From sequence record PP079212.1: a stretch of 39,299 nucleotides of DNA; one strand, written 5' to 3'. The DNA is from Escherichia phage phiHAO2-2. Of this stretch, positions 671-1,003 are shown in pieces. A program made the translations under genes and the position numbers. Position 1 is the first letter of the stretch. Each line of letters begins with the position of its first letter. Under the pieces are notes generated by a model. It ran no database searches. It was not told the origin of the DNA and worked only from the letters and a program-made list of their open reading frames with translations.

Positions 671-1003
671 ATGGAACGTAACGCTAACGCATACTATGAG
701 CTGCTGGCTGCAACCGTTGAGCTGTTCAATGAGCGCATTCAGTACGACGAAATAGCTGAAGGCGATGATTACCATGATGCGCTACATGAAGTCGTAGACG
801 GTCAGGTCCCGCACTATTACCACGAGATTTTCACGGTGATGGCCGCTGATGGTATTGACCATGAGTTCGAAGACTCTGGGCTGATGCCTGAGACCAAGGA
901 TGTGACGCGTATACTGCAAGCTCGTATCTATGAGGCGCTTTATAACGACGTGTCTAATAGCTCGGATGTGGTCTGGTTTGAGGCTGAAGAGGACTGTGAG
1001 TGA
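671..1003 (+). CDS. ocr: Ocr (gp0.3) DNA-mimic anti-restriction protein
   Basis: 110 aa, acidic. Shares long identical stretches with T7 Ocr as recalled ([27 protein letters not shown]). RBS GAGAGGA upstream. First gene after the early promoters. Confidence 0.85.

Follow-up and report, generated by a model that had tools for sequence, protein, structure and literature searches.

An Ocr-type anti-restriction gene at the early left end of the K1F-like Escherichia phage phiHAO2-2

Positions 671-1003 of Escherichia phage phiHAO2-2 very probably carry the ocr (gene 0.3) orthologue of a K1F-like Kayfunavirus phage, with a product that acts as T7 Ocr does. Ocr is the textbook example of an anti-restriction protein that imitates DNA. 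Its monomer has a four-helix, all-alpha fold; one monomer of T7 Ocr mimics about 12 bp of bent B-DNA and the acidic dimer about 20-24 bp. The window, that is, the whole stretch of 39,299 nt that we analyzed (PP079212.1), is a complete K1F-like genome (genus Kayfunavirus, Studiervirinae, Autographiviridae). The protein family, the position of the gene and the phage genus are all known, and the finding is in this sense already known and nothing new. We found no experimental work on phiHAO2-2 Ocr, or on any K1F-type Ocr, in the searchable literature.

The gene and its presumed ribosome-binding site are as follows.

671-1003, + strand: ocr (gene 0.3 homologue), short allele of 110 aa; ATG start, TGA stop at 1001-1003
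657-663, + strand: Shine-Dalgarno sequence GAGAGGA, 8 nt 5' of the ocr ATG, read from the sequence

The predicted product, a very acidic protein of 12.8 kDa, matched the Pfam family PF08684 ('DNA mimic ocr') with 113 bits (E=8.4e-33; the gathering cutoff is 25 bits), and this was its sole Pfam match. It also matched PHROG 2568, 'ocr-like anti-restriction' (E=7e-54), and the solved chains of T7 Ocr (1S7Z, 2Y7C and eight further entries; E=4e-29), the latter without gaps over residues 8-100. BLASTP against T7 Ocr gave 53 identical residues out of 91 (58%, E=4e-36). A sequence-only reading of this DNA had placed an Ocr homologue at 671-1003, and the Pfam, PHROG, PDB sequence and BLAST matches bear it out.

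It is vanishingly improbable that the frame is a chance ORF or an unexpressed relic. The E-values of 1e-29 to 1e-54 to curated families already refute that idea by homology statistics, and the Shine-Dalgarno site and the conserved promoters upstream (see below) also speak against it. Moreover, dN/dS, estimated by the Nei-Gojobori method over codons 1-94 against five relatives, was far below 1: 0.04 against K1F, 0.03 against phiHAO1-1, 0.06 against Bas105, 0.11 against Klebsiella phage P6169 and 0.16 against Hafnia phage yong1. Values of 0.03-0.16 indicate that ocr is a coding gene under strong purifying selection. The comparison with phiHAO1-1, the nearest genome (an Escherichia phage; 97.5% identity across 95% of the first 25 kb of phiHAO2-2), has a peculiarity of its own. 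In ocr (phiHAO2-2 671-952), 26% of the synonymous sites differ although the genomes are 97.5% identical, and the 94 codons contain 16 synonymous and 2 non-synonymous changes. Such a high synonymous divergence in near-identical genomes indicates that the two ocr alleles have different histories, owing to recombination.

The protein had also been described as well conserved with T7 Ocr, and this description fits one part of it and not the rest. T7 Ocr (PDB 1S7Z, 2Y7C, 8Q56, 9EX7, 8V45) belongs to the same Pfam family and aligns in an ungapped register over residues 1-94, where 52 of the 94 residues are identical. The resemblance is strongest in the core at residues 44-88, which is nearly identical, weaker in the N-terminal 16 residues, and gone past residue 94. 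The acidic character is retained throughout the aligned part: 19 of the 20 acidic positions within residues 1-94 of T7 Ocr are acidic at the same position in phiHAO2-2 Ocr. The whole protein contains 28 Asp and Glu against 5 Lys and Arg (net charge -23, pI 4.06; T7 Ocr, net charge -28, pI 4.05).

Residues with assigned roles in T7 Ocr are also largely kept. The acidic patch E59/D62/E64/E66/D67/D73 (numbered without the initial Met), which Roberts et al. called 'clearly important for activity' (E59-D73; PMC3439906), is acidic at all six positions. Six Ocr residues make salt bridges with Salmonella PglX (PMC11341690), and five of these are identical in phiHAO2-2 (D35, D42, D62, D76 and R79). F54 and A58 are both retained within a conserved IF(S/T)VMA motif, and F54 is invariant in the 45 short and 76 long homologues that we compared (the two length classes are described below); a previous study found it conserved in 93% of Ocr homologues and showed that T7 Ocr F54V escapes PARIS while still inhibiting EcoKI (PMC9122126). 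The double mutant F54D/A58E of T7 Ocr is monomeric (PMC7261183). The C-terminal tail is different: the long acidic EEVEEYEEDEE of T7 is replaced by a short FEAEEDCE, and the protein is shorter (110 aa) than T7 Ocr (117 aa). The protein should tolerate this short, divergent C-terminus, given that T7 Ocr99, from which residues 99-116 are deleted, is fully active, like the wild type (PMC3439906).

These differences bear on a second possibility, in which the protein has the Ocr fold but its targets have shifted, mainly to BREX, host RNA polymerase or type III R-M, leaving weak or no type I activity. The reasoning is that the protein departs from T7 Ocr at the far end of helix D and in the acidic tail. 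The divergence past residue 94 and in the first 16 residues is in line with it, as is the finding that T7 Ocr itself has several DNA-binding proteins as partners, among them RNA polymerase (PMC7064336) and BrxX (PMC7261183). On the other hand, type I inhibition by T7 Ocr is very robust to mutation. About 16 carboxylates per monomer had to be neutralized before the affinity fell to the level of DNA, and the loss of residues 99-116 had no effect on it (PMC3439906). Since 19 of the 20 core acidic positions and the whole 59-73 patch are kept in phiHAO2-2 Ocr, we regard such a shift of targets as quite improbable and favor a protein that acts as T7 Ocr does.

We also modeled the fold. The AlphaFold2 model of phiHAO2-2 Ocr, built with 45 short homologues, contained helices at residues 2-24, 34-59, 64-67 and 75-94, with a mean pLDDT of only 63.6. 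A Foldseek search of the PDB with this low-confidence model returned Ocr chains as the sole probable or significant matches (probability 0.99), with a TM-score of 0.43 and an rmsd of 6.9 Å. The alignment behind the model was shallow (sequences at least 90% identical), and a model of the long allele with 76 homologues likewise had low confidence (pLDDT 67.2); its Foldseek search, too, gave Ocr chains as the sole probable matches with a poor superposition. The low confidence of both models can be explained because every available homologue is at least 83% identical to the modeled sequence. We discarded the predicted models as evidence for the fold in view of the poor pLDDT and the poor superposition on solved Ocr; an Ocr fold is instead predicted from the 58% sequence identity to T7 Ocr.

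Next we consider the region upstream of ocr, which contains counterparts of the T7 early signals. The transcription signals of the phage are listed here.

318-346, + strand: putative counterpart of the T7 A1 host (sigma-70) promoter; -35 TTGACT at 318-323, 17-nt spacer, weak -10 CCTAAT at 341-346
402-441, + strand: 40-nt block between the A1-like and A2-like promoters, nearly identical to T7 at about nt 560-600
459-488, + strand: counterpart of the T7 A2 host promoter; TTGACA, 18-nt spacer, TAGTAT; 10 of 12 consensus positions in the promoter scan
600-649, + strand: RNA hairpin (stem, internal loop, stem) at the position of the T7 R0.3 RNase III site
1821, 5354, 7050, 8030, 10330, 16831, 19652, 20656, 25063, 32340 and 38597, + strand: phage promoters with the consensus CTAAACTATCACTATAGGA

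The A1-like element aligns column for column with T7 A1 (TTGACT-17-GATACT; +1 at T7 nt 498) and is a putative promoter on this ground. The consensus promoter scan missed it because its -10 element lacks the conserved A at position 2. The A2-like promoter aligns with T7 A2 (TTGACA-18-TAAGAT; +1 at T7 nt 626), and we identified no counterpart of the T7 A3 promoter upstream of phiHAO2-2 ocr. The block between the two promoters reads CGGTTAAGTAGACAGCCTGATAAGTCATACGAACAACAGG in phiHAO2-2 and CGGATAAGTAGACAGCCTGATAAGTCGCACGAAAAACAGG in T7, and its flanking sequence has diverged. In the hairpin an internal loop separates a lower from an upper stem, and the minimum free energy is -21.8 kcal/mol (z = -5.6; 0 of 200 shuffled sequences were as stable). 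Its flanks are common to the T7 R0.3 region, GCTCTTTAACAATCTGG on the 5' side and TCACTAA(C/T)AACTG on the 3' side, and the hairpin is also present in K1F. It is thus a candidate site for RNase III cleavage. An Rfam scan of positions 1-2500 at E<=1 returned no family, the RNase III-like hairpin being without an Rfam model, and a consensus scan for terminators in 1-2000 found none.

Between the A2-like promoter and the ocr ATG there is no ORF of at least 30 aa; the sole one found has 21 codons. When we searched for the promoter consensus of the phage RNA polymerase, CTAAACTATCACTATAGGA, allowing up to 3 mismatches, we obtained 11 copies, all on the + strand, against 0.02 expected by chance. All 11 lie downstream of ocr, the first of them, at 1821, just 5' of gene 1. 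Therefore the claim that ocr is the first transcribed gene is supported by homology: A1- and A2-like promoters and an R0.3-like hairpin precede it, with no intervening ORF of at least 30 aa and no upstream phage promoter. The sequence supports ocr as a predicted class I (early) gene that is read by host polymerase and forms the first cistron of phiHAO2-2. This arrangement is like that of T7, in which ocr is also the first gene 3' of A1/A2-type host promoters and an RNase III site, while, unlike in T7, no phiOL-like phage promoter was found upstream of the gene.

The position of ocr as the first gene is not genus-wide, as K1F has an extra ORF of 84 aa 5' of its ocr. This ORF (K1F 776-1030, PHROG 10124) lies between the early promoters and ocr, in the K1F 710-1110 region, and is flanked by a duplicated cassette of hairpin and Shine-Dalgarno sequence (compare phiHAO2-2 597-677). 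A gene upstream of ocr is also annotated in phiYIO1-1, Klebsiella P6169 and Hafnia yong1.

We infer the folding, the dimerization, every binding partner and every phenotype of phiHAO2-2 Ocr from its sequence, and the following course of events is expected. When the left end of the genome enters the cell, host RNA polymerase would start at the A1-like and A2-like promoters, and the early transcript is probably trimmed at the R0.3-like RNase III hairpin. The first cistron would then be translated into the acidic 12.8-kDa Ocr, which, by homology to T7 Ocr, should form a helical monomer that dimerizes via the F54/A58 surface, so that the carboxylates of the dimer would be placed like the phosphates of bent B-DNA. 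Unmodified phage DNA that enters later would then be neither cut nor excluded. Anti-anti-restriction systems, PARIS among them, would be expected to sense the same Ocr; in PARIS, AriA would bind Ocr and the tRNA-Lys nuclease AriB would then be set free.

T7 Ocr is an established inhibitor of type I R-M and BREX and an established trigger of PARIS (PMC3439906, PMC7261183, PMC9122126, PMC11464382). Its binding to the M2S1 core of type I enzymes is about 50-fold tighter than that of DNA (PMC3439906), and Ocr sequesters two BrxX/PglX monomers (PMC11341690, PMC11842806). By analogy, phiHAO2-2 Ocr is predicted to inhibit both type I R-M and BREX. In PARIS, recognition of Ocr by AriA leads to the release of AriB and the cleavage of tRNA-Lys (PMC11464382). 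It is reasonable to predict that phiHAO2-2 Ocr would trigger this response since F54 is present, but the prediction is conditional on the PARIS allele because neither T7 Ocr nor SP6 Gp5 elicited a response from a Salmonella PARIS (PMC11341690). phiHAO2-2 encodes no tRNA genes, and thus an escape from PARIS by a tRNA-Lys of the T5 type is unavailable to it. EcoR22I, a type III system, is likewise set off by T7 Ocr, and so is Ronin in its native host (bioRxiv 10.1101/2023.04.06.535777). phiHAO2-2 may therefore be vulnerable to Ocr-sensing systems of the PARIS, Ronin or EcoR22I type, while for phage therapy with K1-specific phages resistance to type I R-M and BREX should follow.

Homologues of phiHAO2-2 Ocr were found by tblastn in 572 phage records (Escherichia, Klebsiella, Salmonella, Yersinia and other hosts), and a large protein collection contained 506 clusters of them. 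Among them are gp01 of phiHAO1-1, 99.1% identical in amino acids over all 110 residues, and gp0.3 of K1F (NC_007456, CKV1F_gp01), 95.5% identical over all 110 residues. Both are annotated as ocr-like anti-restriction, and the K1F GenBank records name gene 0.3 'antirestriction protein'. K1F and other Kayfunavirus phages share with phiHAO2-2 the left-end position of the gene, the hairpin, the Shine-Dalgarno sequence, the EEDCE C-terminus and the TGATG overlap with the next gene. The K1F protein differs in length: K1F gp0.3 has 169 aa, including an extra module of about 57 aa, whereas the phiHAO2-2 protein has 110 aa and lacks the module.

The 120 closest protein clusters fell into two classes, 44 short (110-122 aa, phiHAO2-2 type) and 76 long (162-179 aa, K1F type). 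PADLOC matched neither the short nor the long Ocr proteins, which is expected because Ocr is an anti-defence protein. In the long alleles, which we compared in K1F (1114-1623) and Hafnia phage yong1 (1201-1710), the module of about 57 aa (EYWVVD..TG.IIE...L..A..CAK..Y..G.H..VEDINDNVVFDPAAA) is placed between the Ocr core and the C-terminal EEDCE common to both classes. AlphaFold predicted that it forms a beta-beta-alpha-beta-beta domain of its own (pLDDT 77-84), preceded by a disordered acidic linker. Pfam, PHROG and PDB searches of the module gave no significant match. It is present in 71 phage records, and in each annotated record among the matches listed it falls within ocr; it is absent from the entire phiHAO2-2 genome. 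The module is bracketed by the microhomology GCTGA(A/G)GAGGA, and the short alleles have several different junctions, which together suggest recurrent deletion or allele exchange. We also asked if the module is a relative of the 65-aa ORF downstream of ocr, as in a gene fusion, and rejected this, as there was no similarity (E=1.4).

The existence of the long class raises another possibility for phiHAO2-2, that its 110-aa allele arose by deletion from the 169-aa K1F-type protein and has lost some or all of its function. The module is indeed carried by K1F and by 76 of the 120 closest clusters, and the GCTGA(A/G)GAGGA microhomology at its flanks would permit the deletion. Nevertheless, short alleles are common (44 of the 120), have several junctions and occur in complete genomes of about 39-40 kb, and T7 Ocr itself lacks the module. 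In phiHAO2-2, the core of the short allele is under strong purifying selection, and neither the reading frame nor the TGATG overlap with the gene that follows is disrupted. We consider a crippled allele very improbable.

As for the module itself, it might be a second anti-defence or anti-sensing domain that, for example, masks Ocr from sensors of the PARIS, Ronin or EcoR22I type, a speculation that we think unlikely to be right. If it were true, the repeated loss or gain of the module via microhomology in acidic codons would reflect an ongoing arms race, and the short phiHAO2-2 allele would differ from that of K1F in the abortive-infection systems it triggers.

The gene that follows ocr directly is the 65-aa gene mentioned above.

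1003-1200, + strand: 65-aa gene, ATG at 1003-1005; the same start (1003) is annotated in phiHAO1-1

The ocr stop codon and this ATG overlap in TGATG, which suggests translational coupling of the two genes. The 65-aa protein gave only a weak PHROG match with no function assigned (phrog_33188, E=7e-6). Between ocr and the RNA polymerase gene (1912-4593) there are only three small ORFs, all within 1003-1911 and with no function assigned: this one, another of 65 aa (PHROG 2385) and one of 86 aa (PHROG 7066). A gene for the gp0.7 protein kinase and host shutoff is absent between phiHAO2-2 ocr and gene 1, in which the phage differs from T7, and a gp0.7-type gene is present in some relatives (Klebsiella P6169 and Vec13). 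The gene content of this interval varies among close relatives, as in a mosaic accessory region.

In phage T3, the same genome position as ocr is occupied by gp0.3 SAM hydrolase, which defeats type I R-M enzymatically and not by mimicry. T3 gp0.3 is thus a functional analogue of phiHAO2-2 Ocr and has no homology to it. The same is true of ArdA of conjugative elements, an acidic dimeric DNA mimic directed against type I R-M (PMC2731889). A true homologue outside the subfamily is Gp5 of the Salmonella phage SP6 (Molineuxvirinae), which is about 58% identical to phiHAO2-2 Ocr over residues 18-94. SP6 Gp5 fully inhibits Salmonella BREX (PMC11341690), which shows that anti-BREX activity is kept in Ocr homologues as far from T7 as this one. 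We also noticed that K1-5, an SP6-like K1 phage of the other subfamily (Vectrevirus), encodes a 110-aa Ocr (1201-1533) that is 83% identical to phiHAO2-2 Ocr. The 83% identity of K1-5 Ocr, compared with 58% for SP6, suggests an exchange of ocr between unrelated K1-specific podophages.

The rest of the genome agrees with a K1-specific phage. vB_EcoP_F and other K1-specific phages are about 95% identical to phiHAO2-2, and the tailspike is of the K1F kind.

32408-35602: tailspike, 1064 aa, endosialidase of the full K1F type

It consists of the Pfam domain End_beta_propel (E=4e-221), an N-terminal T7 tail-fibre adaptor and a C-terminal chaperone domain. This K1F-type endosialidase indicates K1-encapsulated E. 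coli as the host, and plaque assays of Ocr function would be limited to K1-encapsulated hosts by it.

Position 1 of phiHAO2-2 corresponds to K1F nt 102, so that the sequence starts about 100 nt inside the left end of K1F, and no exact terminal direct repeat is present in it. Near the left end (115-205), CCTACAGT is present five times, at 115, 130, 155, 184 and 198, and similar repeats, GACCTACGGT, GACCTACAGT and GCCTACAGT, are found near the right end in the last ~200 nt. The repeats at both ends resemble the short repeat arrays that adjoin the terminal repeats in T7-like genomes.

Finally, several early-region genes are mislabelled in related GenBank records (vB_EcoP_F, ZH4, IME177, JB01 and E-4). 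Ocr appears in them as 'protein kinase' or 'receptor binding protein kinase', a small early ORF as 'alpha,alpha-trehalase', and the T7-type RNA polymerase as 'N4-like RNA polymerase'.
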